Source: Candidatus Absconditicoccus praedator (GTDB lineage: Bacteria; Patescibacteriota; Gracilibacteria; Absconditabacterales; Absconditicoccaceae). Taken from it: DNA of 32,000 nt. Each line of letters begins with the position of its first letter. Position 1 is the first letter of the stretch. The notes under the pieces are model-generated. The model did not search any database and was not told the DNA's origin. It saw nothing but the letters and a program-made list of their open reading frames with translations. The stretch is from assembly GCF_021057185.1 (NCBI RefSeq), contig NZ_CP054059.1:540001-572000 (forward strand), read 5' to 3'. Of this stretch, positions 1 through 32,000 are shown one piece after another. The position numbers were made by a program, and so were the translations under genes.

Positions 1-1086
1 ATCAGAAACTACTTCTCAAATATTTTCATAATCTACATTTATTCTTAAATGTTTTGGTAAAGAACTTTTTGATCTCAACTGCTTTAGTTTGGATTTCAAT
101 TTTTCTTCCTTATCTTTGTACTCAGCAGCCTTAAAGTAATCTTGACATGAAATACTACTTTCTATATTTTTTTGTACTTCAGATAACTGTTTTTCTACTT
201 TTTGATATTCTTCATTATTTTTAAGTTTTTGAGTAAGAGTAGATTGTCTTGCACATGCCTCGTCCAAAATGTCAATTGCTTTATCTGGAAGATGTTTATT
301 TAGCATATATCTTGAACTAAGGTCAACACTTCATTTCAAAGCATCATTAGTGATATTTACTCAATGATATTCTTCAAATCTTTCCCTTATTCAAGTAAGT
401 ATACCAATAGCATCATCTCTTTTGGGTTCTTCTACATTTACTTCTTGAAATCTTCTTTTAAGTGCAGCATCTTTTTCTATATGCTTTTGATACTCGTCAT
501 AGGTAGTTGCTCAAATCAATTGAAGTTTTCATCTTGCCAAAAATGGTTTAAGCATATTGGAAGCATCTGCTCATCATTCTGTATTTCAAGCTCATATTAT
601 AGTATGTATTTCGTCAATAAATAAGATTACATTATTGGTTGGATCTATAGCTTCTTCAAGCACTGCTTTAAATCTTGCTTCAAATTCTCACCTATACTTA
701 GTTCAAGCCACAATACTTCAAATATCAAGCATAAAAACTCTTTTATTTTGAAGCTTTTCTGGTACATCATTATCCACTATTCTTTTTGCTAATCATTCTA
801 TAATCGCTGTTTTTCCAACACCAGCTTCTCAAATCAATAAAGGATTGTTTTTTGTCTTTCTCAAAAGAGTATATATACACTGTTGAATTTCTTGATCTCT
901 TCATATTACTGGATCAAGTTCTCAATTTTTAGCTTCTCTTGTTAGATCTGTACCAAAACTTTCAAGAGTAAGTGTTTGTTCTTCTTGTTTAGTAGCAGAA
1001 GAACCTATTTTACTATCTTCTCAATCCTCTGCTAACTCTTGATTTGAGTTATAAATTTTATAATTTTTTAATAGATCTTGTCTCAT
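1..1086 (-). CDS. clpC: ClpC/ClpB-type AAA+ chaperone ATPase, N-terminal part (gene runs off the window at position 1); lacks the usual Clp_N domain
   Basis: Table-25 translation from ATG at 1086 gives [30 protein letters not shown] (Walker A), [53 protein letters not shown] and a UVR-like linker [16 protein letters not shown]. Many in-frame TGA fall on invariant Gly. An in-frame TAA lies 4 codons upstream of the ATG. Confidence 0.9.
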
Positions 1087-1169
1087 TTGGTGGTTTTATA
1101 GTTAAATTTATTTTTTGACAGAACGCTTAATTGATGCTATTATAATAAATATTAAAACATAAAATTCAA

Positions 1170-1373
1170 TTATTTTTTCTTTTTAAAAATTTTTTTCATT
1201 TCTATAACTCCCCCTCAAAAAAAGCTTAAAAAAGAAGTTATTTTATCTTTTAGTTTCTTAAAAAATCATCTTCATTTTGGGGACATTCAAAATCATCATA
1301 GTCACAAAATTGCAGTTCATATCACTCATCAAACTAAAAATTTATTTAATTTTTTCTCAAACAAGTTTTTCAT
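1170..1373 (-). CDS. Small Gly-rich membrane protein, YtxH-like (67 aa)
   Basis: MKNLFEKKLNKFLVGGVIGTAILGLGGFGMSPKGRGFFKKLKDK... resembles the YtxH pattern (hydrophobic Gly-rich helix, then SPKSG-like motif and a basic helix). It contains 13 UGA-Gly codons, so it is invisible in the standard-code track. Confidence 0.5.
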
Positions 1374-1436
1374 AATATCACCTACTTATTAAATGTGCTA
1401 TATTTATAATTATAATATATTTTTTTTCAAGTAATT

Positions 1437-3044
1437 TTAATCACATCTTACCCAGTAAACTTCATCTTCCTGAACTTCATACTCTCATATTTGATCTGCT
1501 AAATTATCTTCATCTATTCATTCAGAATAATCATATCCAAGCTGTCTTGGTGACACCTCAGCCACACTACAGTTATCTTCTATCACAGAAGACAAGATTT
1601 GTCCAGACTCAAATCACCTAATATTCCACATACTTTCAAAATCATTTTGTTTTTTTGTATCATCCTGTACCTTTACTTCTACTACTTGATCAGTAGATCC
1701 ATCATTTGTAAATCTATAAACATTACTTGTTCAATCATCCATTGATACAAATTCTTGTGAAGAATTATCCCAATTTTCAATAGTTATATAGTCTTCATAG
1801 TCAAATTCTTCTGGATATTCTTCAATATAAGCATAATGCCATTCTTCAGCAGGAATTTGAATATAATAAACTCAATCCATCACACAAACAGCATATCAGT
1901 CCTCTCAACATGGTTGATCTTCTCATTCTCAGCCTATTTCCTCTCATTCATCTTCTTCATCCTCTTCTTTTCAGTCTCCAAATCAGTCATTATATCATCT
2001 TTCATATCATTCCTCATAATTTTCTGGCTTATCATCTGGCACATAGTATGATTCTCTTTCCTCATTTCATTCTTCTTTATCATATTCACCATCTTCTTTA
2101 CCTGCCTTGTATCAATCATAATATTCCCATCAATCACTATATCACTCTTCGTATCACTCTCAATACTCATCCGATTTATTATCTGGTACATAGTACGATT
2201 CTCTTTCCTCATTTCATTCTTTTTTGTCTCATAGTCAGTCTGAAAATCAATCTTCATATCACTCTTCATTTGTTCATTCTCAGCCTATTTCCTCTCATTC
2301 ATCTTCTTCATCCTCTTCTTTTCAGTCTCCAAATCAGTCACTATATCATTTTTCATATCATTCCTCATAATTTTCTGACTTATCATCTGGCACATAGTAT
2401 GATTCTCTTTCCTCATTTCATTCTTCTTTATCATATTCACCATCTTCTTTACCTGCCTTGTATCAATCATAATATTCCCATCAATCACTATATCACTCTT
2501 CATATCACTCTCAATACTCATCCGATTTATTATCTGGTACATAGTACGATTCTCTTTCCTCATTTCAGTCTTTTTTGTCTCATAGTCAGTCTGAAAATCA
2601 ATCCTCATATCACTCTTCATTTGTTCATTCTCAGTCTCAACTATCAACTCAGTTAGAAGATTCATTAAACTTATACTTTCATAGTATTTTTTGTATTTCT
2701 AGAATTTTTTCTATTATATACTCAGCACGATTTTTTTCTATTCAAATTTTTCTCGACACTTCTGCAGAAGCATGTCATATTTCTTTATTTCTTTGCTTAT
2801 AATAATCCCTTATATTCAATAAATTTTCTATTTCTCTATCATATGCAGAAAAATCAAACATATTATTCTTCACCATAACATACAAACGATCTTTTATAAC
2901 TTCTTTTTCTTCTGAAGTTACCTGTCAAATATTAGGATTCAAGTCCAAATCTGAGTATGAAGAATAATCACTAAAATTAAATCAGTGCACTAATCAAAAT
3001 GACAATATCAACACTGAAAAGAAAAAAAATTTTTTTAAGTTCAT
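1437..3044 (-). CDS. Secreted hyper-acidic tandem-repeat protein (535 aa): signal peptide, helical N-region, 2 x 117-aa D/E/G/Y repeats, C-terminal Cys-containing domain
   Basis: ATG at 3044, signal peptide MNLKKFFFFSVLILSFGLVHG, open to TAA at 1437-1439 only with UGA=Gly. Length is divisible by 3, and the frame was checked from both ends through the repeats. The repeat unit reads EGTNEEGYEDGFSDGLGDKKEGNEERESYYVPDNKSDEYGEGYEEGYSDGWEYYDGYKAGKEDGEYDKEEGNEERESYYVPDDKPENYEEGYERGYNDGFGDGKEEDEEDEGEEIGG. Confidence 0.8.
1921..2634. repeat. Two near-identical tandem copies of a 351-bp unit (in-frame 117 codons), each with an internal sub-duplication
   Basis: agcctatttcctctcattcatc occurs at 1931 and again at 2282 (period 351). 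I saw only a handful of substitutions between the copies. The sub-motif attctctttcctcatttca occurs twice per unit. Confidence 0.95.
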
Positions 3045-3106
3045 AACTTTTATTTTTTAAATATAAATACTTAGAAAGTATATTATTTTTTATTGAAAAT
3101 TCAACA

Positions 3107-3661: not shown

Positions 3662-3718
3662 TTTTAAATTTTACTTTTTAAATTTTTATAAAAATAATCA
3701 AAAAACATCAAAAATCAA

Positions 3719-5468: not shown

Positions 5469-5798
5469 TTATTTGTCAACCTCATATTTACTCATAAGAT
5501 GCAAGTGTATATGAAACACTTCCTGTCAGTGATCCGAACCAGAATTAATCAAAAGATTGCATCATTTAAGATTTTTTAGTTGTATAATATGCCAAGCTAT
5601 ATCATACATTCATTTGATCAAGTTTTTATCTTCTTCATTATCTACTGAATGAAACATTTTTATATGTTTTTTTGGAATTATAAGTATATGTACAGGTGTC
5701 TTTGGATTTATGTCATTAAAAGCAATATAACTGTCATCTTCATAAACTTTTTCAGCAGGAATTTCTCAATTTACTATTTTACAAAATATACACTCCAT
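5469..5798 (-). CDS. HIT-family (histidine triad) nucleotide hydrolase
   Basis: [45 protein letters not shown]... and the triad [12 protein letters not shown]. 109 aa. Confidence 0.9.
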
Positions 5799-7315: not shown

Positions 7316-7588
7316 ATGAAAATTGTGTTTGTAGGTGCTATTTGGTGTAATTCATGTCTTGTTGCAAAACCAATTGTAAATAAAATTATACAAGAATATT
7401 CTGATATTATATATGAAGAATACGATTTTGATACTCACAAAGATATAGTAGAAAAGTACAATCTTGATGATGCCCTACCTGCAATAATATTTGAATCAAC
7501 AAACTGACAAGTTCTTAAAAAGCATATTTGAGAAATATCAGAAAAACAACTAAAAAACAACCTAAAGGAGCTATTTAACATAGACTAA
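7316..7588 (+). CDS. Small thioredoxin-fold protein with WCNSC active site (90 aa)
   Basis: The track ORF ends at TGA 7505, but the sequence continues ...FESTNGQVLKKHIGEISEKQLKNNLKELFNID. Both UGA sit where thioredoxin-fold proteins carry Gly (xxxGxxxxxxxGxxxxxxL). Confidence 0.8.
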
Positions 7589-7644
7589 AAATTTGAAAAA
7601 TTATTGTTCAAAATAATAAATTTAATTCGAAACTAAAAATAATA

Positions 7645-8115
7645 ATGAAAAAGATTTTTTTAATAGCAATACTATCATTTTCAATCATAATCTATTGATG
7701 TGATTGAAATTGAGAAGGAACAAATAACAACAACCAGTCAAACTGAAATTCACAAGAATCAGCTTATGAAATACAACCCCAAGAATGAGTAACACAAATA
7801 TATTATTTTTGGTGAGATGGTTGCCCTGCTTGCGATACTCAAAATCAAATATGGGAAGATCTAGAAAACAATGAAGATTACAAAGACAAAATCAACATAA
7901 ATAAATTTGAAACATGGTGAGATAGACAAAACTCTAGACTTATGTGAGAGATTTGAAGTCAACTTTGAGTTCGTACAACTTGAGTTCCTCTAACTATAAT
8001 CTGAGAAGAATCTTTTGTATGAGTAGATAAAAACAATATGATTGAAAAAATTGATTATTGCATAGAATATGAATGTAATGATGAAGTAATTGATATAATC
8101 AATAATTTTGAATAA
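7645..8115 (+). CDS. Thioredoxin-fold lipoprotein with CPAC motif (156 aa)
   Basis: MKKIFLIAILSFSIIIYGC lipobox (the -1 Gly is UGA), a low-complexity N/G/Q linker, then IYYFWGDGCPACDTQ and VPLTIIGEESFVG (cis-Pro region typical of the thioredoxin/DsbA fold). Confidence 0.75.
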
Positions 8116-8116
8116 T

Positions 8117-8968
8117 ATGAAATATATAACAATACTCATAACAACAGTACTATTGTTTTTGGTTGGATTTTGATTTGGTGAAAATATAGATAACACCTGA
8201 GATAATACTACAGGACAACAACATATAGTAGAACTTCCTTTTCTTTGAGATATCAATCTTTATGCGTTATCTATACCAGTGTTAACAATAATTGCATGAC
8301 TTTTGGATTGATTCAATCCATGTGCATTGTTTATATTATTGTTTTTATTGAGTATCCTACTTGGTAGCTGAGACAAAAAGAAAGTCATAATACTTTGAAG
8401 TACATTTATAATAGCTTCATGAATTGCATATCTTGGAATACTTTCATTCCTATTATTCACAGTACAAAGCATTCCTCAACACCTAAGAGGCACATTCCAA
8501 ATCATGGTATGAGTTTTGTGAATAATATTTGGTATATCAAGCCTTATAAAAGCATTCACTGAAAAAACTTGATGTTCGGTAATGTGAGAAAAAAGAAGAA
8601 AATTTTTCTTTGATAAAATACAAAAAGTAATACAACAAAAAAGTATGATTTTATCGATTATATGAATAAGTTTGATAGCATTCATAGTAAACTTTTTGGA
8701 AATGTTTTGTACAGTTTGAATACCTATCACATATGTAACAATATTAGAAGCCCAATGATTTTGATTAATTACAAATATACTTTTTTTGCTTGGTTATGTT
8801 TTCTTTTTTCTGCTTGATCATTTCATAATATTCTGATTTGCTGTTGCCACTTTTAGCCTAATATGAATAAGCAATAAACACAAAATCTGGATAAATATTC
8901 TTTGATGATTGTTAATGTTATGACTAGGTATAACAATTATTATTAAACCAGAATTATTAATGTTCTAA
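8117..8968 (+). CDS. ccdA: CcdA/DsbD-family transmembrane thiol:disulfide electron transporter (283 aa)
   Basis: Multi-pass hydrophobic protein with LLDGFNPCALFILL in the first helix region and a second Cys in FLEMFCTVGIP. Starts 2 nt after the stop of the lipoprotein gene. Confidence 0.8.
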
Positions 8969-11446: not shown

Positions 11447-12490
11447 ATGACCAATATAGTAGTTATTTGAGGTTGAACAGGAAGTTTCAATATGCTTTCA
11501 GCCCTTAAAGATATACCATGAACTCAAATATCTTCAATAGTAACAATGTCTGATGATTGATGAAGCACCTGAAAACTTAGAGATGAATACTGAGCTCTAC
11601 CTCCTTGAGACCTTAGAAGAGCCATAGTTGCTTTGTCAAACAAGGAAAAAACACAAATACTAAGAGATATTTTTAATTATAGATTTGAAGGCTGAGCATT
11701 TTATTGACACAATCTTTGAAATATTATAATGATGGCCTTACACGACATAACACACGATTTTTGAAAGTCTATAAATCTTTTAGAAGAACTTTTTGATGTA
11801 AAATGAAAAGTATATCCTACAACTTTTGAAAGAGTAAGAATTTTAGCTCAACTTGAAAACCTTGATTATGTAATATGAGAAACTAATATTGATATACCAA
11901 AACACGATCCTCAGCTACAAATAAAAGACTTGTTTGTTCTTAAAGATGATTATATAAATGCTATCAAAAATATACTAAATGAACAACAAATACCCTATAA
12001 TATGAAATTCAATATACTAGAAAAATTTATTCAGGATAAACCAAAAGAAAATCCTCATATACCTGAGGTGATAAATAATGCAGATTATATAATAATAGCT
12101 CCCTGAGATTTATATACTTCTATTTTACCAAACATACTTATTGGAAATATTGCCAACTTACTAAAAGAATCAAAAGCACAAAAAATGCTATTTTTAAACC
12201 TTTTCACAAAATACTGAGAAACAAATAATTACCATTTATCTGACTTTTTGAATGTTTTCAAATACTTTTTGTGAGAGGATATATTTGATTATATTTTAAT
12301 GCAAGACTGGGAAAAACATCCTGTGAAAGAACACATCTTAAAACATTATGAAAAAGAAAATAAATCTATCATAAAAGAAGATATTACAGATAGTAGAGTA
12401 ATGAAATACGACTTTATAAAACAAGAAGATATGATTAGACACGATAGCAATAAAATTAAAAATGTAATTGAACATATTGTTTGTAGTTAG
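11447..12490 (+). CDS. yvcK: YvcK/CofD-family (UPF0052, gluconeogenesis factor-like) protein (347 aa)
   Basis: MTNIVVIGGGTGSFNMLSALKDIPGTQISSIVTMSDDGGSTGKLRDEYGALPPGDLRRAIVAL and APGDLYTSILPNIL match the family consensus. The GGGTG motif is written ATT TGA GGT TGA ACA GGA. Confidence 0.85.
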
Positions 12491-13476: not shown

Positions 13477-14484
13477 ATGGAAAAAATATGAGGTTGACGA
13501 AGATGAAATATTGAAATATACAATCAAAAAAACAAAAAAATTGCCAGAAAAACCGCACTAAAATGAAAGGAATCTATAATTCAAAAAGAAATATTTATAA
13601 TCAAAAAATTAAATCAATACTGAATAAACTTTGTACCTCAAATACAATATACTTGAGAAAATTTTTTTGAGTATGAATTTATAGAGTGAATTCATTTTTC
13701 TGAAGCTTATGAAAATCAAAACAAAAACAAAAATTTGATGCTTGATTTATTGTATAAAGCTTATTGTCTTGATAGATGCTGAATAATACACTGAGAACTA
13801 ATGAGACCCTACAAAAATATAATTGTAGGGGAACAAAACAAAATCTATATAATAGATTTTGAAAGATGAAAATATGGTGACTTTTCTTGAAAGAATCTTA
13901 AATTACTTTCTCAGTGGATAAAAAATGAATGATTTTTGAGTATCAAAGATTTAAAAACAATTTGACAACTCAAAAATCCTGATGAAATTTATCAGTATAT
14001 CAAAAGAAAAATTAAAAAACCAAAATTATATTCACTATTGAGTATAATATTATGATTTGTAAGTTTGGATTTACTTACTAAATGGATTTTTTATAATAAA
14101 TCTATTGGCGAACAATTTATTTTCTTGAATCCAGCATTCAATGAATGAATTGCTCGATGAGTTCAGATTGATATGACAATTATTATGCTAATTAGTTTTA
14201 TTAGTTTTTTCGTTTTTTGGTTTGTATACAATAAGAACTGGATAAGCTGAACTGTTTTAATACTATTTGTAGCAGGAGCTTTATGAAACTTAATTGATAG
14301 ACTATTTCTATGATGAGTAAGAGATTTCATAATGATATGAGATTTTCCTATATTTAATATAGCAGATATTTATCTAAGTATAGCTATAAGTATCTTGATT
14401 TGGGAAGAAATAATTTTTCCAATAACTCACTATCTTTTGTACAGAAAGTGACATACTTGAAAGGACAAAACAAATAAATACTAA
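13477..14484 (+). CDS. lspA: Fusion protein: N-terminal small Bud32/RIO/LPS-kinase-like domain plus C-terminal lipoprotein signal peptidase II (335 aa)
   Basis: N-part: IGGGRRGNIEIY (G-loop-like), KIARK, GIIHGELMRPYKNIIVGEQNKIYIIDFERG (HGDL..N and DF-like motifs). C-part: four hydrophobic helices with GALGNLIDRLFLGGVRDFIMIGDFPIFNIADIYL (LspA signature). Single uninterrupted table-25 frame. Confidence 0.75.
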
Positions 14485-14494: not shown

Positions 14495-15094
14495 CTATAT
14501 TTTTATAAGATAAGTTTCTTTACTACTTTTCCTGGTAGAAGATGGTTTGTAAGTTTTTATATTTTTTCATCAATATATTTTCTTTAGTTTTCATAAAAAC
14601 TCTTCAAATCATGGTCACATAAAAACCTTCATTACAAATTTTCCATCTTGTTTCAGATAGCTTTGATAAACATAAAAACTTTCTTCAAGCAAATCTACGG
14701 ATTTCATACTATCTATATCTTTCATTCATATAGTATTTGGAGCCATATCTGAAACTATAACATCAAGTTCTCATAATCCTAAATTTTCAAGTATTCATGA
14801 TACACCTTCTTTATCTTTTATATCCTGCTGGTATAAAAAAACTCATTCCATGTTCATCTCAGCTTGCATCAAATCAAATCAAACTATCTTATAGTTTTGA
14901 ACATTTAATTTATTTAGTTTACCATATATATATTGAATCCAACTTCATGGATAACATCATATATCAAGAATGTTTTTTGTGTTTTTATTAAAAATATGAA
15001 ATTTATTATCTATTTCTTCCAATTTAAAAGCACTTCTTGCTTTATATCATGTTTTTTTAGCTTTTTTAAAATAATAATCATATGGATTGTACAT
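14495..15094 (-). CDS. rlmE: 23S rRNA 2'-O-ribose methyltransferase RlmE/FtsJ (199 aa)
   Basis: YYFKKAKKTGYKARSAFKLEEIDNKFHIF...ILDIGCYPGSWIQY...VIVSDMAPNTIG...FVMKVFMGPGFEEF matches FtsJ motifs. Confidence 0.85.
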
Positions 15095-15118
15095 TTATTA
15101 CAAAAAAAATTATAAAAT

Positions 15119-15856: not shown

Positions 15857-16293
15857 TTATTTTCAATAATTTTTTTAAAATCTTCAAGGTTTTCAAATTT
15901 TTTATAAACAGAAGCAAATCTAATATATGCAACCATATCTATTTCTTTTAATAAATTCAAAATATCATCTCATATTTCTATTGAATCAACTTCTTTTCAT
16001 TTACTAAGCCAGTTTACTTCAAGTTGACTTATTATCTCTTCTATTTGATCTACACTAAAGTCTCTTTTGGCAAAAGCCAGCATAAGAGCTTTTTTTATTT
16101 TCATTCTATCATAGATTTCTTTATTTCAATTTCTTTTTATAACTAACAAATCTGTTATTCAGGTTTTTTCAAAAGTTGTAAATTTTTTTCAGCAATATTC
16201 ACAATTTCTTCTTCTCCTCACAGATCTTCAATCCTCTACTATCCTAGAATCTACGACTCTTGTTTCCATATTCCCACATTTTGGACATTTCAT
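15844..16293 (-). CDS. nrdR: Transcriptional repressor NrdR (zinc ribbon plus ATP-cone, 149 aa)
   Basis: [43 protein letters not shown]... then an ATP-cone region ending AYIRFASVYKKF. Overlaps the next gene start by 13 nt. Confidence 0.9.
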
Positions 16294-16318: not shown

Positions 16319-18517
16319 TTACTCTCTAGGAATCAAATATCTACTATTATAAAATGTTATATTTTTCAAAAATCCTCTAAACCATATAACATCTTCTCAA
16401 CTTACCTCTCACATGATAGAATCATAATTCTTAGAACCAGAAAACTCTGACCAGTTTCTATATCAAAAATCCATATAAGATGAATTATCGTCTATACTAA
16501 TCCACTTATTAAGCATATCATCATAATCATATACAAGCTGATTTATTATATACTCTACAAGATAATAATAATCCTGAGATATTCAAACTATATCATATAT
16601 ATATATTTTTTTTAGAGTATCAAGATGTAAATCTACTCAATTTATCTTTTCTTGGATACTAAGGTATTTATAATAAAGAAGAAATCAAAACAAAGTTTCT
16701 CTCAAAAATGCACAAATTCATATTATACTTTCTTTATTGTATCTTTTTTGAATATCAATCTTTTCATTATTTAATATATTTATAAAATCTTTCCAAACCC
16801 ATATATCAAAAGTATATATATTTTCTTTAATATTAGAAACATCTTTTTTATAAAAATGCTTGTACAAATGATTTTGATTTGTTTCTCAAATAAGTTCAAA
16901 AAAATCTTTATATAAACAATTTAATATTCATGTCTTTGAATACTTCACCATAGAAGAAATTTTTGAACCAAATTTTTCTTTGAAAAGATTAATAATATCT
17001 TTATTTTGCACAAATATTTTTATATCTTTTTGGTTTATGTCTTGAAATATTACTGTTAAAAAATTTTCATCAAATAATTTTAACAAAAATGGATTTGAAT
17101 AAGTTTGTTTGAATGTAGATCTATATGGCAAAGAGAATTTTTCTTTACCAGCTTTTACATTCTCAAATGCATATTTATAATAAAAAACATTTTTACTATA
17201 ATTATACAAAACACCTCCATAGAAAAACAATGAATCTTGATGCATTCAACTCAAAGATCTGTTTGTATTAAGTACACTTAAAAGGTTTCTTCTAAAAAGC
17301 TTTAAGAAAAAACTATCTCCTCTTCACACCCAAAATCATCACACAAAAGTTAGATAAAAATTTATAAGTTTTTCTGTTGCTACAGATTCTTTTTTTAACC
17401 TATCTGGTATTTTAACATTATCTGGATCATCTCATTCTCAAATACTTGACATAAGTTCATCAAGCTCATCATCTATTCCAGAACCTCAAGCTTTATTAAA
17501 CTTCCAAGAAATAAATCTTTTTATTCACTTAAAATAATTTTTCTTGAAAAGTCTATAATCCAAAAGATACACTAGAAAATCTTCTAAAACATCTTTATTT
17601 TTAAGGAAACTTGACATATAATTATCCAAAACATCTTTATCATAAATATTTTCAACCACAAGCTCTGAGATCTTATAAACATCCTCTCACTCAAAAAGAT
17701 ATCTAATCAAAATATCAGCGGGCAAAATAAATGGTATTATTTTCTTTTCGGTAGTTGATATCCTTGAAGATCTTGTATAAATATGATAATTTTTAATAAA
17801 ATCTAATGTTACTGCTTTTTTATTGCTTTTTCTTTGTTCATCATAAAATATCCGTTCATAATAATATTTTTCATCAATAAAATCATCTTCAAAAAATTTA
17901 TTAAGAGTTTTTGACAGGTTAAAAAGCATAAAAAATACTTGGATATTTTTTAGAACTTTTAATTTTATTTGTTGAATTGTATTTTCATCATATTTAAAAC
18001 CTGAATTTTTACAAACAAATAAGTAAGTTTGAAAAAACAGATCTATAAACCAAGAATAATTTTCTTTATCATCCGAATAAGGAAAAACTTTAATTCTTGC
18101 AAAAAAGATAAATACTATATAGTAAACAGTCAAAATAAAGTTAATAAAATACCTATGATCATATCATTTGAAAAAATTTCTTGTATAAATACTTACAACT
18201 AGAGAAACTACACTTCATATATTTGATGGAGAAAAAAACCTATATCAATTGAAGTTGGATACAACTCAATATGAATAATAATTATCTATTTCTTTAGGCT
18301 TCATAGAAGATCACTTTCCAAAACCAACTTTTACTTCAAAACTATCTAAGGACACATCAAAAAGATTTAACTTGAAGTTTTCTACTATTTTTCTATTTAC
18401 TACAGAAAAAAACTGTTTTGCAGAAACAAAACTTATAAAAACACTTGCTGGATTTATAGGCTGATTTATTACCTCATCAGGGAAAAGAGATATAAGAATT
18501 CTTTTAAAAAGCTTCAT
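16319..18517 (-). CDS. Large hypothetical protein (732 aa), Tyr/Phe/Lys/Asn-rich, at least one hydrophobic segment
   Basis: The three track fragments (18311-18517, 17687-18133, 16928-17245) are in one frame, joined by UGA-Gly codons into a single ORF ending in TAA at 16319-16321. No recognised motif. Confidence 0.7.
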
Positions 18518-18740: not shown

Positions 18741-19541
18741 TTAAGGCTGTTGCATTGGATCTATGTCTTGCTCATCTTGATCCTTTATTTCATGAATTTC
18801 TACTTCAAAATACATATTTTCTCAAGCCATTGGAGGATTGAAATCTACTATTACAATTCATTCATCGTCTCTAATTTCTGTTATCTCTCCAAACATTTGA
18901 CCAAAGTTTACAAACTCATCTTCTACTGGCTCCAAACCTGCTTGCTCAAAATATTCCATTGGAATTTCCTCTACAAGCTCTTCTTGATAATCTCAATATC
19001 ATTCATCTGGAGTAACTTCAAATTCTTTAACTTCTCATTCTTCCATTCAAAGAATTGCATCTTCAAAACCAGGAATCATTTGTCATGCACCAACTATAAA
19101 TTCCAATGGTTGATAAGGTCTATTTTCATCATATATACCAGCATCTTCAGCAACACTTTGTTCACTAGTATCAAAAACCTCACCATCTTCATCAGTACCA
19201 GTATAATCCAAAGACACAAGATGTCCTTCTTCTACATAATCATGATGATCAGGAGAAGACGGCATTTCCTGTTGCATTGCATCCTGCATTGCTTCTTCAT
19301 CCATCATATCTTCATCATCTATCATATCCTCTACATCTTCTTCCATCGCTTCTTCATCAGTCATATCCTCTTGCATCGCCTCCTCTTCTTCATAATCTTG
19401 TCATTCTTCATTATTTTGATTTTGTTGCTCAGTCTGATCTGAAGCATCTTGAGTTCAATTCATATCTTCTATATCTTCCATGCATCAATACAAACTAAAA
19501 CTTCAAAAAATTACTAAAGCTATTATCAATTGTTTTTTCAT
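18741..19541 (-). CDS. FKBP-type (SlyD-like) peptidyl-prolyl isomerase lipoprotein with long acidic/Met-rich linker (266 aa)
   Basis: MKKQLIIALVIFGSFSLYGC lipobox. Linker EEEAMQEDMTDEEAMEEDVEDMIDDEDMMDEEAMQDAMQQEM. FKBP core GHLVSLDYTGTDEDGEVFDTS...PLEFIVGAGQMIPGFEDAILGMEEGEVKEFEVTPDEGYG. Confidence 0.85.
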
Positions 19542-19683: not shown

Positions 19684-19974
19684 TTAGGGGTCTATTTTGT
19701 ATCAACCTCATTTTACTGTTTTTATGATTGTTTTGTCTATTTTTTTTCTAAGATTTGAAACATATACATCCAATTTTTTTTCATTTTCATATCAATCAAA
19801 TCACCAAGTATAGTTTATCAAATCTTCTCTAGACACCACTGCTCATACATTTTTCATCAACTTTTCAAGTATCAGAACCTCTTTATTAGTACATTTTTTA
19901 TTGTTTCAACTTCTTCATATATTCTTTTTTGATAAAAATTTTAGAATTTTTTCCATATTTTCTTTTTTTCTCAT
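19684..19974 (-). CDS. Stand-alone OmpR/PhoB-type winged-helix DNA-binding domain protein (96 aa, no receiver domain)
   Basis: CTNKEVLILEKLMKNVGAVVSREDLINYTWGFDGYENEKKLDVYVSNLRKKIDKTIIKTVKGGGYKIDP aligns along its length with the C-terminus of the response regulator at 21394-22041 (FTNKEISLIECLLDHFGTAVSRTDIIDYIWGGDIFDNDNKLDVYISNIRRKLGKGIIKTVKGFGYKIEK). Confidence 0.8.
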
Positions 19975-20027
19975 TTGTATTATTTTATATATTTAAATAT
20001 GCCCACAATTGAGCATAAATAAAATAT

Positions 20028-20053
20028 AAACAAAAACCTTAAATAAATATTAA
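20028..20053 (-). promoter_or_regulatory. Copy 2 of a shared 26-nt motif (candidate OmpR-family operator), upstream of the orphan wHTH gene
   Basis: Plus strand aaacaaaaaccttaaataaatattaa versus aaaacaaaaccttaaataaacattaa at 21362-21387 (23/26 identical by hand alignment). The minus-strand reading contains direct GTTT(A/T) repeats about 11 nt apart. Confidence 0.35.
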
Positions 20054-20058
20054 TTAAT

Positions 20059-20088
20059 AAAAAACATCCCTTCATTTTAGAAGGGATG
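20059..20088 (-). terminator. Intrinsic terminator after the acidic repeat gene
   Basis: Minus strand: CATCCCTTctaaaatgAAGGGATG followed by TTTTTT. 8-bp stem, located 26 nt after the stop at 20114. Confidence 0.7.
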
Positions 20089-20113
20089 CAAAATGATAAA
20101 ATATTTTCAAAAA

Positions 20114-21289
20114 TTATTCTAGAAGGTCTTCTAACATTCAATCAAGTCATCAGTCCATATCAGCTTCTTCTGCTGTAGAAACATCTCATCACAATTCTTC
20201 TATTCTAGACTCAAAAGAGTTTTGAAGATAAATAAACACAGATGTATACAAATATTGATTTTGAACTGACAAGTTAAGATCATCTATTTTATTAATAACA
20301 TCTTCCAAATCTTCATATCTTTCTTCAAGCAAATCAAGATTATCAGTATTATTCACAAAATTATCTATTTTTGATTGAATTGTATTAAACTCTTCATAGT
20401 TTTCTCATACAAGATTGTCTATATTTTCATCAACAATATTTTCTCTTTCTTCTATTGATTTAGAAAACTTTTCCGATAGGTTAACTCATTGATCAAGACT
20501 CACATCTTCTACTTGATAATCTTCTTCTGCTCATTCTACATCCATTTCAACTTGTTCTCATTCATCCTCATAACCTTCTTCTACTCATTCTGCTTCTACA
20601 TCCATATCATATTCTTCTTCGTTATAATCTTCCTCTGCTCATTCTACAGATTCATATCACTCAAACTGTACTTCTCAGTTCCACCAACCAAGTTCTATAT
20701 CTCAAACATACTGATTATCTCCATCATAATATTCAACTCTAGCAGTATTAGACCCTATCCAGTCAATATTACCAACTTCAAACTGTTCAGTATAATTAGG
20801 TTGATTTTCTGATAAATCATTTATATATGAGTTTATATGATCATTATATATTTCAGTAAAGTTTAATTCTTCAATATATTCATCTGTATATATGTCTTCA
20901 GGCGACTCTCATTCATCTTCATAATCTTCTTCTACTCATTCTACTTCTACATCCATATCATATTCTTCTTCGTTATAATCTTCCTCTACTCATTCTACGT
21001 CCATTTCAACTTGTTCTCATTCATCTTCATAATCTTCTTCTACTCATTCTACTTCTACATCCATATCATATTCTTCTTCGTTATAATCTTCCTCTGCTCA
21101 CTCTACGTCCATTTCAACTTGTTCTCATTCATCTTCATAATCTTCTTCTACTCATTCTGCTTCTACATCCATTTCTTGATCAAACATTTGTATTTCTTCT
21201 TCATAATCAGAATAATCTTCTTCTGCATTAACATAACTTAATGCACTTATCAACGCAATTATAGATAAAAAGGAAATAAATTTTTTCAT
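20114..21289 (-). CDS. Secreted hyper-acidic repeat protein (391 aa): signal peptide, 36-aa E/D/V/M/Y repeats on both sides of a Trp/Tyr-rich core, helical C-terminal region
   Basis: MKKFISFLSIIALISALSYVNA signal peptide. Repeats EGVEEDYEDEGEQVEMDVEGAEEDYNEEEYDMDVEV. Core NFTEIYNDHINSYINDLSENQPNYTEQFEVGNIDWIGSNTARVEYYDGDNQYVGDIELGWWNGEVQFEGY. Open only with UGA=Gly; TAA at 20114-20116. Confidence 0.8.
20509..20653. repeat. Distal block (about 1.3 copies) of the 108-bp acidic coding repeat
   Basis: Encodes VEGAEEDYNEEEYDMDVEAEGVEEGYEDEGEQVEMDVEGAEEDYQVED, nearly the same DNA as 20905-21175. Confidence 0.85.
20905..21175. repeat. About 2.5 tandem copies of a 108-bp (36-codon) coding repeat
   Basis: tcatcttcataatcttcttctactcattctacttctacatccatatcatattcttcttcgttataatcttcctct... 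recurs with period 108. Confidence 0.9.
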
Positions 21290-21361
21290 AGCAAACTTGG
21301 TTATCATCTAAAATAGTTTAAGTTTCATAGTCCTTTTAATTAAGGACTAATTATTAAGTGT

Positions 21362-21387
21362 AAAACAAAACCTTAAATAAACATTAA
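21362..21387 (-). promoter_or_regulatory. Copy 1 of the shared 26-nt motif, between the response-regulator stop and the acidic repeat gene
   Basis: aaaacaaaaccttaaataaacattaa lies 7 nt downstream of the RR stop and about 75 nt upstream of ATG 21289. See 20028-20053. Confidence 0.35.
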
Positions 21388-21393
21388 ACATAT

Positions 21394-22041
21394 TTATTTT
21401 TCAATTTTATATCAAAATCATTTCACTGTTTTTATAATCCCTTTACCAAGTTTTCTTCTAATATTGGATATATAAACATCAAGTTTATTATCATTATCAA
21501 AAATATCTCATCACCAAATATAATCAATTATATCTGTCCTTGAAACAGCAGTTCAAAAATGATCTAACAAACACTCAATCAAAGAAATTTCTTTGTTAGT
21601 GAATTCTACTTTTTCTCAATTTTTATACACCTTTTTTTGATTTAAATATATCACTACATCTTCAAATTCAAATTTATCAACCTGATTTGTTCTTTCAAGT
21701 AGCCTTTTTACTCTTGCTAATAGTTCTTCAAAATCAAATGGTTTCACAAGATAATCATCCGCTCACAAGTCAAATCATTCTAATTTATCTTCAAGCTGAT
21801 GCTTGGATGTTGTTATAATGATTGGAATATTAGTTTTTTCTCTTGTATACTCACAAAAATCCATTCAATCTCATCAAGGCAACATCAAATCCAACAAAAC
21901 AAGATTATATTTATTTTTTTTGAAAAGCTTTTTAGCAACTTCAAGATCATCTGCTATATCAGAATCATATCAATTTGCTTGTAGCATTTCTTGTATAGCA
22001 TTAGCAATTGTTTTATTATCTTCAACTATTAGTATTTTCAT
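21394..22041 (-). CDS. OmpR-family response regulator (receiver plus winged helix, 215 aa)
   Basis: MKILIVEDNKTIANAI...YNLVLLDLMLPGGDGMDFC...IPIIITTSK...GADDYLVKPFDFEELLARV, then the wHTH ending TVKGFGYKIEK. Confidence 0.9.
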
Positions 22042-23287
22042 TTTTATTAAATTTTATAGTAAATTTAGTTCAGTTTCAAACTTCCGAACTTACATCAACA
22101 TCATAATCCAACAAATCAATTATTTGCTTCACAATATAAAGTCACATTCAAAAACTTTTTATATCAGTTTTTGCTGAGTCTTCTTGATAAAAACTATGCC
22201 ATATTTTTTGTAAGTTTTCCGATCTTATTCATATACCATCATCTTCAATTTCAAAAAAGTTGTTATCAAAATAGATTTTTATATTTCAATTGTTTTTTGT
22301 ATATTTAAAAGCATTTTCTACAAGATTTTTTACAAGAACTTCAAAAAGTTGATAATTCGAACTCAAATATATATCATCATGTATTTTTTTCTCTATATTT
22401 ATTTTTTTATTAGTATAAAAAGATTCAATTTTTTGTATACAACTGTTAACCAAATTGGAAGCATTAAACTTTTCTATAGAAAAATCAGTTGATGATGACT
22501 GTATCTTGGTAAGAAACAATAAGTTTTCTATTAGAGAATTCATATTTTTAATGGTTGACTTTATCTGTGAAATTTCCTGCTTTGCACCATATTTCATAGA
22601 AATCAAATCCAGTTGAGAACTTATTTCCATAAGTGGAGTCTTTATTTCATGAGATGCATTTGATATAAAATTTTTCAATGATTTTGCCTGAACATATATC
22701 TTATTCATTGACTTATTTATTGTATCAGAAAGTATTTTTATCTCATCGTCATAAGGTCAATCCATACTTATAGGATTATTAAGATTTTCTATATCTAAAC
22801 TTTTTGTTTGTGAAACAAGTGACCTAAGTCTTTTTAGAGATGTTCTCACAAAATAGTGAGAAACAAAATAAGCCAACACTATAAAAAATATTATCATATA
22901 AAAATTTATAAGCAAAAGGTTCAACTGCGAAAATATATGGTAAGTGACAACTGAATATGACAAATTTTCTCAAGAAATAGAATATAATACATAATCATTA
23001 TCAATTCTTGATATGTTAAATAAAACATCATTTTCTAATATCTCCTTAGCCAAAACGTTATCCAGACTTATTGTATCTCAAGGTCAAGAATGACGAAGAT
23101 GTTTGGGAACCATAGGATCAAAACCAAATAGCTGAAACACAGTAGACCTTTCTTCAAGAAAAGCTTTTTCTTGACTATACCATTGAGAAAAATAAAAAAA
23201 GTTTACTATTATACCAAACAAAAATAGTAATATCGTTGTAAACAAAGTGAATTTTAAACTTATTTTTGTAGATGTTGTTAGATTCAT
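22016..23287 (-). CDS. Sensor histidine kinase (2 TM, HisKA, HATPase_c; 423 aa)
   Basis: The three track fragments are in one frame joined by UGA-Gly. TM helices near the N-terminus and at LLLINFYMIIFFIVLAYFV. H-box FISNASHEIKTPL, N-box LVENAFKYT, G-boxes EIEDDGIGI and GMGLYIVKQI. The 3' end overlaps the RR start by 26 nt. Confidence 0.9.
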
Positions 23288-25595: not shown

Positions 25596-26354
25596 ATGCT
25601 TTCTAAATCTGAATCAAAAATTAAAAACATTAAAGAATCTTGAAAGTACCTAACAGAACTTTTACATTTAGTTAAAGATGCTGTATGAGTGTGAGTCAGA
25701 TTATCATATCTTGAATCTATAGCACAAGATTATATTAATAGAAAATGACTAAAATGAGCATTTAAATGATATATGTGATTCCCCGCAAATCTTTGTCTAT
25801 CTGTAAACGATTGTATAGTTCACTGAATACCAGATGAGTACCAACTAAAAGAATGAGATGTTTTGAAAATAGATGCATGAATTGTATATAATTGATGAAT
25901 TTCTGATAGTGCTATAACTGTCATTGTATGATGAGACAATTCAAATCAATTATGAAAGGAATTATACAAAACAACAAAACATGCACTTGATACAGCCATG
26001 GAAAAAATAGCTCCTTGAGTACCTCTTTTTGAATATTCAAAAACAATATACTCAACAATGATGAGTAATGATTTTAGTGTAATAAAAAATCTTACCTGAC
26101 ATTGAGTTTGAGACAAGGTACATGAAAAACCTCATATATACAACTGGCCCCACCCAGAAACAAAAAAAATAAAATTTGAAAAAAATATGGTCTTAGCATT
26201 AGAACCAATAACATCAATATTGTCTGAAGACATAAAAACCAAGCCCTGAAATGACTGGAATTTGTATACAGAAAATGAAGATTTATGAGCACAATGGGAG
26301 TATACTGTTTTAGTTACTGACAACTGAATACAAATAATATCAGGTATTCAATAA
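25596..26354 (+). CDS. map: Type I methionine aminopeptidase (252 aa)
   Basis: ...NDCIVHGIPDEYQLKEGDVLKIDAGIVYNGGISDSAITVIVG...NLTGHGVGDKVHEKPHIYN...MVLALEPI...AQWEYTVLVTDNG matches the MetAP metal-ligand motifs. HGIP, GHGVG and D-x-G-Gly residues are UGA-encoded. Confidence 0.9.
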
Positions 26355-26428: not shown

Positions 26429-26647
26429 CTAATCAACTTTAACATTAGTAGCTTTTGGTTTACCATTTTCTCCTTCAATTATATTAAATGTTAGTTTATC
26501 TCATTCTTCTAATTCATTAAATGCTTCATATCAATCTTGACCTTCTCATAACGCACTTGCATGAAAGAAAACACTTTCTCAACTATCAGTTAAAATAAAT
26601 CCAAATCACTTATCTGTCAACTTGTCTATTGTACCTGTATTACTCAT
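26429..26647 (-). CDS. Cold-shock domain protein (CspA family, 72 aa)
   Basis: MSNTGTIDKLTDKGFGFILTDSGESVFFHASAL...GDKLTFNIIEGENGKPKATNVKVD contains the RNP1-like KGFGFI and RNP2-like VFFH motifs. Confidence 0.9.
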
Positions 26648-26811: not shown

Positions 26812-29385
26812 CTATTTTCTAGGCTTTCTTCTCTCTCGTGTAGTAGATTTTGTTTCAAGCCTTTTTTTATCGTGACTTCTATTTATTTGATTAATCTTTC
26901 ATTCAAGCTTAGTTTTTATTTCATTTATTTTTCTGGAAGTTTCTGGATTGGGATAATAAAAATTTCCTCACACAATAATATGTCAATTCTTTTCTACAAT
27001 CCTCCTCACATACACATCCACCAATAATTCTTCTCATAATATATTTAAATCTAATCTTACCAAATCATTTTCTATAATATCAGAATCAACTCACTCTTTT
27101 TTTTCTAATCAAAATCAAATTCAAGCTGAACTTAAATCTAAAATTACTCACTTCCAATTACCATTTATTCAAACTGGCATTAATAAGGAATAACCTAAAG
27201 GAACCTTTTCTACTTCAACTCAATCCAAACTAGAAACATCAATAAATTTCTTATCTCTAATTTGTTCTATATTACTTAAAGCATCTTTTATATAACCTAT
27301 CCTATTTTCTAAACTAAGTTCTTTTCATCATCTATATAAAAACTCAACTCTATGATACTGTCTTTCTGTTCAAAAATCCTCCTTATCTTCTATAACCAAA
27401 GTTTCTAGCTCTTCTCTAAGATTTTTTATTTCATATCTAAAACTAGAGCTTAGTGTTTTAGAAATTTTTTTAGGAAAGTATGGAGTTCATCTTCTAACTG
27501 CATTTAAATAGGATCCATAATTATCTAAACCAACTCTTCAAGACGTATAATTTCATAATAAATAATAAATAAAATTAATATCACTACTATTGTTTTTAAT
27601 GTTTATATATCCATCTGATTTAACTCTATTTTCTGCATCTTCAATTTTTTTGTTTATTTCTTCTCTTCTATTTTTTAAATTACTCAATTTTTTTTGTTTA
27701 TCAAATACTGATGTTTGTAATTTTTTAAATAAACCCAATATTAATTGTCTTTTTGAGTGTGGAAGATCTCTAAGATTTACTTCTCATTTTTTATATTTTT
27801 CAAAAAAACTAATTGCATTTTGAACTTCTTTAGAAGATTTTATTTTTTCTAAATCGGCATTTATTTCTGATATTTCTCTATTTATCTCTTCTAATTCTAG
27901 TTGCATTGAATTGAGTTCTTCTTGCGACATAAGTCTAACCTTATCTACAGAAAGCATTATATTTGTGGTTAATCATTCAGTCATGTTTCATCCACTTAAC
28001 ATTCAATTATTATCCATATGTAAAGATCCTGAACAATGAATATTATTTCAATAGCTGCTTCAAATAGATATATTATCTCAAATTATTATACAATTTACAG
28101 CTTTCCTTACTTCAACATCAGTTCAAATTATTATAGAATTCTCAGCATACTCAACTTTTGTTTTTCAATAAACACATCTAACTTCAGAATTTATTAACTT
28201 TCATTTAACCATTAAAGACCCTCCAATATTTTCAATGTCTCATCAAACAGAATCCTCAAACAAAATAATCTTTCATCAATTTGACTTCAAAAATCAATTT
28301 AACTTTCCTCACTTTAACACTATATTTTTTCATTCTATTCAATATCAATTTTCTACAGTTCAAAATTGATGAAAATTTTCTGCATCTATTTGAAGTATTC
28401 AGGTTTTGGGTCATATATTTGTGTTATTTATACATTCTGAAGTTATACTTATTTTTCATTTTGAATCTTTTGATATAAATCAAGCAGTCTTAGCAACAAG
28501 ATACTCAACTCAATCAACTACTTCTATATTAGTTCATTTTCAAGAAAATCTTCTCAAGTTGTGATCCTTTCAATGGACCTGCCTAAGTTCCGTTCAAAAA
28601 ACAGTCATTCAAGGATATCAAATTGTTGGTGGAACCTTTCTAATTAATCTTGGATCAGACAGATCTGTTATTTGAGGAATAGGATTCTTAGCCCTTTTCA
28701 TGTCAACTTTTCAATCTTCTCTATCTAAGGGAGAAAAGTCTTTTTCTATGTCTATTAAATGTTCAAAGTATGCATCTTCTCAATTTTTAGGCTGAATTCA
28801 TTCAGCTATAATATCAACAAATTGATTATTTTTTCATGTCTGTACTTGCTCTTCAATCTCTTGAACTGATTTATCTATTTTTTCAAAATCTAAACCAAAA
28901 ACTACTCAATACTCCAAAAGTATTGAAAATAATTTATCTTTTTCTATTGGACTTTCAATATCCTTGCGCTTCATTCATCAGTCTTTTACTATTTTTCAAA
29001 AATTAAACAATATTTTTCAGCTTTTTTCTTTTAATCTTTTTTGGTATGACTGCTTTTCTTCTAAATCAAATTTTTTAAAACTTTTTCACAATTTAATACT
29101 GTCTTCTGAGACATTTTTATTAACTATTATATCTAGTATACTTTCAAAATTCTCATCTATTCACTCTATAAAAAATCATTCTTCAAAAATTTTTTTAAGA
29201 TAATTCAACAAGGACTTTTTTGATAAATCTGAAGAAAATTCAAAAAAAACACCTTCATTACTAAAAGTAATTGGCAATCAAAGTTCATCTTTTAGCATAT
29301 CAGAAATGCTGTTACTATTATCAGAAACTTTAGAAGAAAGCGTTTCTTCACCACTTCTTATTGTATTTTTAGCATTATCAGTCAT
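26812..29385 (-). CDS. Large FapA/DUF342-like protein A (857 aa): N-domain, Gly-rich beta-helix region, coiled coil, C-terminal PilZ-like barrel, basic tail
   Basis: Single table-25 ORF (more than 70 UGA-Gly). FapA_N-like LFSILLEYGVVFGLDFEKI. PPTIGYPGMTVFGTELRQVHGKDHNL...GKGTNIEVVDGVEYLVAKTAGFISKDSKGKISI, then repetitive G-x-hydrophobic turns (GYGIEGKNIVLKGGKLNGFLKSNGGKIILFEDSVGGDIENIGGSLMVKGKLINSEV...). Coiled coil MSQEELNSMQLELEEINREISEINADLEKIK. C-terminus ERQYHRVEF ... GVILDLSSAGIGFGL ... VRRIVEKNGHIIVGGNF. Confidence 0.6.
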
Positions 29386-29449
29386 CAGTTCAAAATAAAT
29401 ATAAATTACAAGACAATATATATACAAAAAAACAAATGTCAATCATATT

Positions 29450-31675
29450 TTATTTCGTTTTTTGAGTTTTTATTTGTCTTATTTTTTGATCTAGTAATCA
29501 CTTTTTTTCTTTTATTCTATCTCTTGAAAGTTGACTTAATTCAAAAAAATTTCATCCTACAAACATACATCAGTTTTTTATATCGGTCCACCTCACATAT
29601 ATATCTAACATAAAATCTTCTCATAAGATTGAAAAATCAACCATAATATTATCGTGTTTTATAATTTCCTTTTCCAAACCTTCTTCATACAAAAGACAAC
29701 ATCATATTCAAGTAATACTAATATTGAAAACCAGTCATCTCCACTGTCAATTTATTACTATTGGTATTAAAATTTTAGGAGACTCTATTGTTCTTCAAGT
29801 CAAAGATGAAAAAGCTCAACTTAATCAAACAGGTATATCATCCTCTTGAAACTCCTCACTATAAAACCTATCTAATAAAGGCTTTATAGCTTTTGATTTA
29901 TCCTCTAAAGTTGTATCTTTAGTAACATTCATTAAAAATTCAGATCTTGGAGAGTATTTATCATCTCTTACAACTCAAAAAATTTCTCTATTTTCTACAG
30001 ATTTTTGCATTAATGCTTCTCTTAGTGTAGAATGGTTGACATCAACTTTACTTGTATATTTATCTTTTTTTCTGGTAGGCATTGGAGGTATCAGCATTCT
30101 AGTACTTTTTAACAACCTCTCATAATTATTAATAGTAACTCTATAAGGAAAAACATTATTTTTAATTAAATATGATATTAATGCTATATTATTAGAATAT
30201 ATTCATTCCACAAAAATTTTAGGGTCTCATAAATTTTCAATATTTCTTTGTGACTCACTTAGTCTTTCAACTAAAGAATCATAATACCTTCTATATTTTT
30301 TATAATCCTCTTCTAATGGTAAATATTCCTTTTGTATTCTTGCAATAAGAAATCTTGCTTGCTCTTTTCATGATGAAGATAGGCTCTTTAAATAGTTTTG
30401 ATCTTTTCTAAAAAGTTCAAATATTTTTTTTCATTTTTGTATTTCTTCATCATTTTCTAACTCTTCTAATTTTCTTTTTTTTAATACCAATTTTTTTCTG
30501 ACTAAGTTGAGTATTTCTTCTGTTTTTATGGCATCTGCAGATTGATTATCAGATATTGATAAAACAGGAACTAATATGTTTGTTGAATCATCAAGAATTA
30601 TTCTTTCTTCAGAGTTAATAGATCTTCATTTTGGTTTATCAGTATTTATAGATTGAATTATAATTTCTATTCAATGTATTTTAGACTCAGAACAATTAAC
30701 TAAAGTTATCTTATCTCCAACTATAACACAATTTATTGCATTTTTTATGGTAATATTAGATCACACAATAGTTGAATTTTCTGCATAGTTTACAACTATC
30801 TGTCAATCAATACTTCTCAAAAATGAGTTTGAAATCCTTCATCTTGTTATTATAGCTCAAGAATCACTTACAATCTCTCACATACAAACACTTCAAGATT
30901 CTATTCTTCAAGAATTAGATTGAATACTTCAGTAAACAATTCATTTTTTTACTGTTAAATTTGTACAGTAAACTTTTTGATTTGATTCTATATTTCAACT
31001 AACACACAAATCATCACTATCAATTATAATTTCTCAGTATCTATCTTTTATATCTCACTCGTAATAAGGTTCATCTATTACATGCACTACTCAATTACCA
31101 TCCTCGAACAAATAACCAATTTTCTCTGCAACTAATAAAACTTCTCAGTTATTTTCTATAATTTTTGTTCAATTTCAACACTTAGATTCCAATTCCAATT
31201 TTGTATCTTTTACATCTAACTCTGAGATAAGTTCTCAAAAAATATTATACACTTTTCAAGAATTCTCTGGTAACCTAATTATAACAGGATCATTCAAGTC
31301 CGAAATTTGTCAAACCTTTAATATTGACTTAGTTGGTAATCCACTAGTAGCATACTCAGTTCATTGTATTTTTGGAGATGTGTTTTTTTCATATACAAAA
31401 TGAAAAGAAGTTTGTTCACTAAAATTTTGAGGTGAGGCTATAATGATACTTCAATCCTTCATTTCTGATATATAACTTATATTTTCATACTCAAATCAAC
31501 ATACAATTCACTTATCTATCATTACAAGGAATAATATGTCCTTAGAAAAAACATAGCCTGATTTATTAAATTGCTCCACATCAAAGTATGCAAACTCAGT
31601 ATCTGAGTATATTAAATTCTCATAAAAGCTTATTTCTTCTGGATCATAAGATAATATATTATCTCATATTTTCAT
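29450..31675 (-). CDS. Large FapA/DUF342-like protein B (741 aa), paralog of protein A, with C-terminal PilZ-like barrel
   Basis: ATG at 31675 (TAA 2 codons upstream in frame) to TAA at 29450-29452. ILFLVMIDKGIVCGFEYENI (FapA_N-like), a beta-helix-like region (GIVYGSIQSNSGRIESGSVCMGEIVSDSGAIITRGRISNSFLRSIDGQIVVNYAENSTIVGSNITIKNAINCVIVGDKITL), the coiled coil LVLKKRKLEELENDEEIQKGKKIFELF, and C-terminal GLVFNISITGIGCCL...VRWTDIKNGCMFVGGNFFEL. Confidence 0.6.
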
Positions 31676-31729
31676 TTCTGAAACAACTTTTATTCAATCC
31701 ATAATATTTACAAGCAATCTTTTATTTAT

Positions 31730-31960
31730 ATTATGTATATATACTCATTTTCTAAAAAGTTCTGACAAAAAAGTTAAAACATCAAATTTTGAAGAATTAT
31801 TTTGAGAACATATAAATATTCCTTCTTCATTTATATAAAAATCTAATGACAAAACCCCCAAAAGATCATTTAGACTATCAGAAATTTTTTCATTATCTAA
31901 TTTTGATTCAGCAAATTCCTCCTCTCTTTTATCAAGTGAGGTCATGTATTTGTAATTCAA
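31730..31960 (-). CDS. Small ORF (about 76 aa) resembling the extreme N-terminus of protein A; possibly a detached N-terminal module of protein B
   Basis: TTG at 31960 (preceded by AAGAGGG 9 nt upstream) or ATG at 31945. ...SDSLNDLLGVLSLDFYINEEGIFICSQNNSSKFDVLTFLSELFRKG compares with A residues ...SDMLKDELGLPITFSNEGVFFEFSSDLSKKSLLNYLKKIFEEG. The 3' end (in-frame TAA near 31730) was read by eye and is uncertain. Confidence 0.35.
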
Positions 31961-32000
31961 AGTAAATTGCCCTCTTATATTTTTTTAGTCTTAAAAATCA

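Follow-up and report, generated by a model that had tools for sequence, protein, structure and literature searches.

UGA as an apparently ordinary glycine codon in a 32-kb window of the Candidatus Absconditicoccus praedator genome

The genome of Candidatus Absconditicoccus praedator, of which a stretch of 32 kb was analysed in this work (the whole stretch is called the window below), almost certainly uses UGA as an ordinary glycine codon and ends its genes with UAA and UAG only. This reading had been put forward in an earlier note made from the letters of the same DNA. It is based on comparison of sequences, and it was upheld by coding density, by amino acid composition, by the Pfam scores of glycine and tryptophan translations, and by homologue alignments in which the codon was masked as X. 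The recoding of UGA to glycine has been established since 2013, and the significance of the results lies mainly in the correct handling of the sequence: reading this contig with translation table 11 (the standard code) or with table 4 (UGA = Trp) is wrong. Possibly of interest to specialists are the circumstance that a stop codon has turned into the majority glycine codon, and the support, independent but thin, for a predicted CGA/CGG = Trp change.

The GC (guanine plus cytosine) content, determined by base count across the window, is 26%. Under the standard code, open reading frames (ORFs) of at least 150 amino acids account for 8% of the window, a share that rises to 88% once TGA is taken as a sense codon. 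Freeing TAG instead of TGA gives a coverage of 10%; with TAA freed it is 38%, an artefact commonly seen in AT-rich DNA. Gene calling with TAA and TAG as the sole stops yielded 31 genes, 30 of them complete, and a coding density of 89%. The 9,550 codons of these genes include 534 in-frame TGA, 143 GGN and 55 TGG. In-frame TGA is found inside essentially every gene, it is evenly distributed along the genes without enrichment towards their ends, and comparison of the bases adjoining TGA with those adjoining GGN revealed no striking preference. The complete genes stop at TAA (19 genes) or TAG (11 genes), as had been claimed for every gene of the window. The C-termini are reached by the Pfam matches, and the gene ends coincide with the ends of the corresponding NCBI proteins.

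If the standard code were valid, the TGA codons would have to be real stops resulting from pseudogene formation or assembly errors, or else sites of programmed readthrough or selenocysteine insertion. That TGA normally is a stop codon is all that speaks for this explanation, whose probability we consider practically nil: the 534 TGA codons are spread evenly over 31 genes, they fall on invariant catalytic glycines (Walker A, methionine aminopeptidase [MetAP] and YvcK motifs), and the coding density would be the 8% mentioned above. Against selenocysteine it can also be held that the PDB and ClpC alignments described below contain no cysteine-aligned columns at TGA, and that a search with Rfam gathering thresholds found no family, selenocysteine insertion sequence (SECIS) elements included, in the 32 kb. 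The number, spread and position of the TGA codons, together with the low density, refute the standard code, readthrough and selenocysteine alike.

The earlier note had also warned that a standard-code ORF track splits the genes and promotes antisense artefacts. This remark was correct, because table 11 yields 44 ORFs with a minimum length of 60 amino acids, of which 26 are antisense, among them the two longest. Three further ORFs are in a wrong frame, one is neither, and only 14 are in-frame fragments of genes. With table 11, merely 11 ORFs of at least 90 amino acids are found in the whole window. Exact protein look-up of two table-11 ORFs returned no record.

Table 4 is the default guess for a genome of such low GC content with in-frame TGA codons. 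Low GC, the many in-frame TGA and the lack of in-frame TAA and TAG all fit a tryptophan meaning of UGA, and a public pipeline did translate the same DNA in this way (see below). However, were TGA to encode tryptophan, this amino acid would make up 6.2% of the residues encoded by the 31 genes and glycine only 1.5%, i.e. the share of GGN among all codons. With TGA counted, the glycine share is 7.1%. A profile-score comparison of the kind proposed in the note was run with ten conserved genes, each translated with TGA as glycine and with TGA as tryptophan. The glycine translation was the better one in all 16 Pfam families matched by both, for instance in CofD (244.4 bits as glycine, 180.9 as tryptophan), Peptidase_M24 (139.6 and 90.1 bits) and FtsJ (144.1 and 118.4 bits). 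Likewise, AAA in the ClpC-type ATPase scored 52.9 bits as glycine and 33.6 as tryptophan, Peptidase_A8 in gene 16 scored 72.6 and 51.0 bits, respectively, and every Pfam family of RlmE, the pseudouridine synthase and NrdR scored higher with glycine.

Alignments with TGA masked as X gave the same picture. When MetAP and YvcK were aligned with structures from T. maritima, S. aureus, E. coli and three Firmicutes, the masked residue was opposite glycine in 81 of 117 cases and opposite tryptophan in none (binomial P ~1e-60 for glycine at a background of 8%). With three PDB chains for each protein, glycine faced 12-15 of the 22 masked positions of MetAP, and 13-14 of the 17 masked positions of YvcK. 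For ClpC, a scan of genome contigs provided at least 80 matches, with none from the source genome among those listed; 78 loci had no in-frame TGA, and 76 standard-code genomes were used to determine majorities. Among the 1,332 residues facing masked ClpC TGA in the 78 loci there were 973 glycines, 160 alanines, 74 serines, 44 asparagines and not a single tryptophan. Glycine was the majority residue at 14 of the 18 TGA positions, and at nine of these it was present in 100% of the genomes; at codons other than TGA and GGN it had the majority at only 3 of 319 positions. The masked alignments, the Pfam scores and the composition thus refute UGA = Trp, whose remaining probability is extremely small.

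The statement that TGG still encodes tryptophan also held. In both alignment sets TGG falls on tryptophan or aromatic columns, albeit with small numbers: of 12 TGG in the tblastn set, 7 faced tryptophan and most of the others an aromatic residue, and of 12 in the PDB set, 3 faced tryptophan and 5 tyrosine or phenylalanine.

Some observations weigh against UGA as a glycine codon. About one quarter of the TGA positions face alanine, serine, asparagine or other residues, which is usual for variable glycine sites but is not an all-glycine pattern. The support for this particular organism is all comparative. Scans of the window and of two contigs from this genome detected no tRNA gene, and there was none in the 4.6 kb of adjoining sequence covered; a window of 32 kb is too short to judge the absence of release factor 2 (RF2).

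According to the note, TGA falls on invariant glycines of unrelated conserved families. All the motifs quoted there are present and contain the codons as given (Table 1), and the TGA column of the Clp Walker A motif (ClpC position 86) is 100% glycine in the 76 homologues.

For ten of ten further genes, the glycine translation agreed letter by letter with a Ca. A. praedator protein at NCBI (UFX83008 to UFX83036), thus the NCBI annotation of this DNA already treats UGA as glycine. The recoding is not new, and table 25 is used by NCBI for this genome. The product of gene 16 corresponds to the 335-amino-acid Ca. A. praedator signal peptidase II (P0121), differing from it only at the two masked residues. 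Ca. A. praedator (taxid 2735562, genome size 1,129,696 bp) belongs to the order Absconditabacterales, formerly candidate division SR1, and the identity of the proteins confirms that the DNA comes from a Gracilibacteria/Absconditabacteria-type genome. Sequencing run SRR15691272 includes two contigs that match the window with 100% identity, whereas an exact 40-mer taken from the right end of the window had no match among metagenome and viral contigs. That a table 4 annotation would be wrong was another claim of the note, and the mistake has a concrete instance: a public protein collection contains copies derived from Logan assemblies, with tryptophan at every TGA (P0196 and P0208), which are the products of 4992-5447(-) and 26429-26647(-) and are clustered with the correct NCBI glycine versions of the same proteins.

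As measured in the window, TGA makes up 79% of the glycine codons (534 of 677 in the 31 genes), the TGA/GGN ratio is 3.7, and GGC (7 codons) and GGG (10 codons) have nearly gone. The captured stop codon now serves as the principal codon for glycine. It appears from the gTranslate preprint, in which log(UGA/GGN) was clamped at 0 to remove extreme outliers, that UGA/GGN ratios higher than 1 are uncommon among genomes. This genome may nevertheless not be an extreme case of UGA-rich glycine usage, since genomes with a GC content down to 21% were reported in the clade (PMC8629427). In the genes of ribosomal protein L9 and CspA, TGA represents only 11 of 21 glycine codons, whereas the remaining genes reach 80% (Fisher P = 0.005; the comparison was post hoc and the numbers are small), and highly expressed genes may have retained a preference for GGN.

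Besides UGA = Gly, the codon comparisons suggest a second, unannotated reassignment: it is probable that CGA and CGG encode tryptophan. Shulgina and Eddy (2021) reported that Codetta predicts CGA/CGG = Trp in Absconditabacteria (PMC8629427). CGN codons are almost absent from the 31 genes (12 of 9,550 codons; CGA 3, CGG 1), arginine being carried by AGA (216) and AGG (50). All three informative CGA/CGG codons of the genome fall on tryptophan or aromatic positions, these being three codons only, one of them outside the window. The first is the CGA at 14155 in the signal peptidase II (LspA) part of gene 16. The PDB alignments of LspA do not include this motif, and Pfam score differences and the codons of relatives were used instead. 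Peptidase_A8 scores 75.8 bits with arginine at this position, 76.1 with X, and 79.3 with either tryptophan or phenylalanine, i.e. 3.5 bits above arginine. The site is TGG in three relatives, including the two nearest ones, which have the same flanking residues, and CGA in a fourth. The second codon, CGA 13498, is kept as CGA before AGA in four relatives with 38-54% identity, and its column contains W, Y or H in other members of the family. The third is a CGG in the endonuclease IV gene (L089:1818-1820), located in the same genome ~2.8 kb past the right end of the window, which faces the tryptophan of E. coli Nfo in ILET..PD.W.EEI. In addition, CGA or CGG of Absconditabacterales-type relatives pairs four times with a TGG of the window.

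These pairings and the Codetta prediction make it unlikely that plain table 25 is complete and that CGA and CGG mean arginine, as they are translated by NCBI (P0121). It must be noted that there are only four CGA/CGG codons in the window, and that some data do favour arginine. The CGA at 26836 lies in the basic tail of gene 30, where arginine looks natural, and BD1-5-like relatives (L028, L047, L042) pair CGA with a conserved arginine in ClpC. Gene 20, with the CGG at 17852, and gene 30, with the CGA at 26836, had no homologue among the loci retrieved from relatives. Of the code 25 assignment made in the note, UGA = Gly stands, but since CGA and CGG resemble tryptophan codons, plain table 25 probably does not describe the code of this genome in full. 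If this is true, the NCBI table 25 proteome shows arginine where the cell inserts tryptophan. A co-cultured organism lends independent but thin support to the 2021 prediction.

How UGA could be translated as glycine is suggested by what is known of the clade. UGA would be decoded by a tRNA-Gly of its own, which has the anticodon UCA, is charged by glycyl-tRNA synthetase (GlyRS) and would be expected to carry the glycine identity elements G1:C72, C2:G71, G3:C70 and U73. RF2, which otherwise stops at UGA, would have been lost, and UAA and UAG would be recognised by release factor 1 (RF1). At the GC content of 26%, AT pressure appears to have replaced GGN by UGA in about four fifths of the glycine codons. 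Decoding by tRNA-Gly(UCA) together with loss of RF2 is most likely the mechanism in Ca. A. praedator, because the organism is a member of the clade for which this mechanism was published. No tRNA was found by the scans in the loci of eight to ten relatives. UGA = Gly was reportedly described by Campbell et al. in 2013 for SR1/Absconditabacteria and by Rinke et al. in 2013 for Gracilibacteria/BD1-5. The clade using code 25 consists of Absconditabacterales/BD1-5 and corresponds to the GTDB class JAEDAM01. For a BD1-5 bacterium, the glycine meaning of UGA was proved by proteomics (Hanke et al. 2014, PMC4032931), prfB is absent from BD1-5 genomes (PMC6851277), the SR1 tRNA-Gly(UCA) is charged by GlyRS, as summarised in PMC13293708, and Codetta inferred UGA = Gly in six of six Absconditabacteria (PMC8629427).

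Table 1. Motifs, CGA/CGG codons and genes of the window (aa, amino acids; bits are Pfam scores; accession numbers denote NCBI proteins identical to the glycine translation).
Feature	Position	Strand	Remarks
Clp Walker A, LI-G-EAGVGKT	808-837	(-)	TTG ATT TGA GAA GCT GGT GTT GGA AAA ACA; first Gly is TGA
Clp IIGAGNTEGG	571-600	(-)	four TGA
YvcK V-I-G-G-G-T-G	11462-11482	(+)	GTT ATT TGA GGT TGA ACA GGA
LspA GALGNLIDR	14275-14301	(+)	
MetAP HGIP	25818-25832	(+)	
MetAP GHGVG	26094-26114	(+)	three TGA
Receiver LPGGDG	21865-21882	(-)	TGA TGA GAT TGA
CspA KGFGFI	26594-26611	(-)	AAG TGA TTT GGA TTT ATT
Lipobox YGC, thioredoxin-like lipoprotein	7687-7704	(+)	Gly is TGA at 7696-7698
Lipobox YGC, FKBP-type lipoprotein	19479-19496	(-)	Gly is TGA at 19485-19487
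CGA in LspA motif N-E-G-I-A-[CGA]-G	14155-14157	(+)	
CGA, residue 8 of gene 16	13498-13500	(+)	directly before AGA (Arg)
CGG in gene 20	17852-17854	(-)	
CGA in gene 30	26836-26838	(-)	basic C-terminal tail TT[CGA]ERRKPRK
ClpC-type AAA+ ATPase, N-terminal 362 codons	1..1086	(-)	leaves window at start; 18 TGA
Secreted acidic repeat protein, 535 aa	1437..3044	(-)	53 TGA, 10% of codons
Hypothetical secreted protein, 184 aa	3107..3661	(-)	10 TGA; UFX83008.1
Protein with peptidoglycan-binding domains, 387 aa	3719..4882	(-)	30 TGA; PG_binding_1 72 bits
Ribosomal protein L9	4992..5447	(-)	6 TGA; Pfam score higher with Gly than with Trp; UFX83010.1
HIT-family protein	5469..5798	(-)	4 TGA; HIT 98.5 bits as Gly, 91.2 as Trp; UFX83011.1
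Thioredoxin, thioredoxin-like lipoprotein, multi-pass membrane protein	7316..8968	(+)	
Stand-alone PHP-domain protein, 306 aa	9470..10390	(+)	18 TGA; PHP 144 bits; UFX83018.1
YvcK/CofD-family protein	11447..12490	(+)	17 TGA; CofD; UFX83020.1
Gene 16, kinase-like domain fused to signal peptidase II (LspA)	13477..14484	(+)	23 TGA, 2 CGA
RlmE methyltransferase, pseudouridine synthase, NrdR	14495..16293	(-)	13, 11 and 7 TGA; RlmE UFX83023.1, NrdR UFX83025.1
Gene 20, 732-aa protein of no assigned family	16319..18517	(-)	23 TGA, one CGG
FKBP-type isomerase lipoprotein	18741..19541	(-)	FKBP_C
OmpR-type DNA-binding protein, acidic repeat protein, OmpR-type response regulator, histidine kinase	19684..23287	(-)	response regulator UFX83030.1
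Type I methionine aminopeptidase	25596..26354	(+)	22 of 23 Gly codons are TGA; M24; UFX83035.1
Cold-shock protein	26429..26647	(-)	CSD; UFX83036.1
Genes 30 and 31, tandem paralogues with FapA_N region	26812..31945	(-)	61 and 44 TGA
Gene 30, 857 aa	26812-29385	(-)	FapA_N 93.5 bits; C-terminal stretch PilZ 20.4 bits, just under the cut-off of 22.5
Gene 31, 831 aa	29450-31945	(-)	FapA_N 17.3 bits, under cut-off

Some of the genes deserve a comment of their own. The closest protein match of the ClpC-type ATPase was 68% identical in a protein search whose returns did not include the organism's own protein; among the genome matches listed, the ClpC of the nearest other species representative, an SR1 metagenome-assembled genome, has 59% identity. 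The window contains two near-perfect tandem repeats, each with 98% identity between the copies: one of 351 bp x 2 (1923-2634) within the protein encoded at 1437..3044, and one of 108 bp x 2.5 (20907-21172). Both lie inside secreted, very acidic proteins rich in Glu, Asp, Gly and Tyr. The repeat regions also yield the longest spurious antisense ORFs of table 11, the longest of the window being antisense to the 1437..3044 gene.

The N-terminal kinase-like domain of the gene 16 product has ~180 amino acids. More than 40 homologues belonging to code-25 lineages have the same kinase-LspA architecture and protein length, and one of them carries the JGI (Joint Genome Institute) annotation lipoprotein signal peptidase/predicted Ser/Thr protein kinase. 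The stand-alone PHP-domain protein resembles the N-terminus of the DNA polymerase III alpha subunit, and the TAA of its gene is located directly 5' of a glycosyltransferase gene. Near the two-component pair, 19684-19974(-) encodes a stand-alone OmpR-type winged-helix protein of 96 amino acids without a receiver domain; histidine kinase, response regulator and small winged-helix protein are arranged likewise on a contig of a relative (L084:6148-6438).

It is instructive to compare the code of the window with the known variant codes. The situation of CGA and CGG resembles the Codetta prediction for Absconditabacteria in that both codons are very rare, arginine is carried by AGA and AGG, and the informative CGA/CGG codons are on tryptophan or aromatic positions. 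It differs from the prediction in that only three informative codons are available here, and NCBI table 25 omits the CGA/CGG reassignment. With code 4 the window shares the capture of a stop codon in an AT-rich reduced genome and the collapse of table 11 gene calling, whereas the amino acid is different, glycine here and tryptophan in Mycoplasmatales/Entomoplasmatales and insect symbionts. With code 25 it has the following in common: in-frame UGA on conserved glycines, UAA and UAG as the only stops, UGG as tryptophan and a small genome with low GC content, the organism itself being a named member of the Absconditabacterales. The difference from the code 25 relatives lies in codon usage. In the four relatives sampled (L001, L081, L028 and L047, with 33-43% GC), UGA represents 16-28% of the glycine codons according to a crude gene call on the loci, whereas in the window of Ca. 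A. praedator it is more than a supplementary codon, with a share of 79%.

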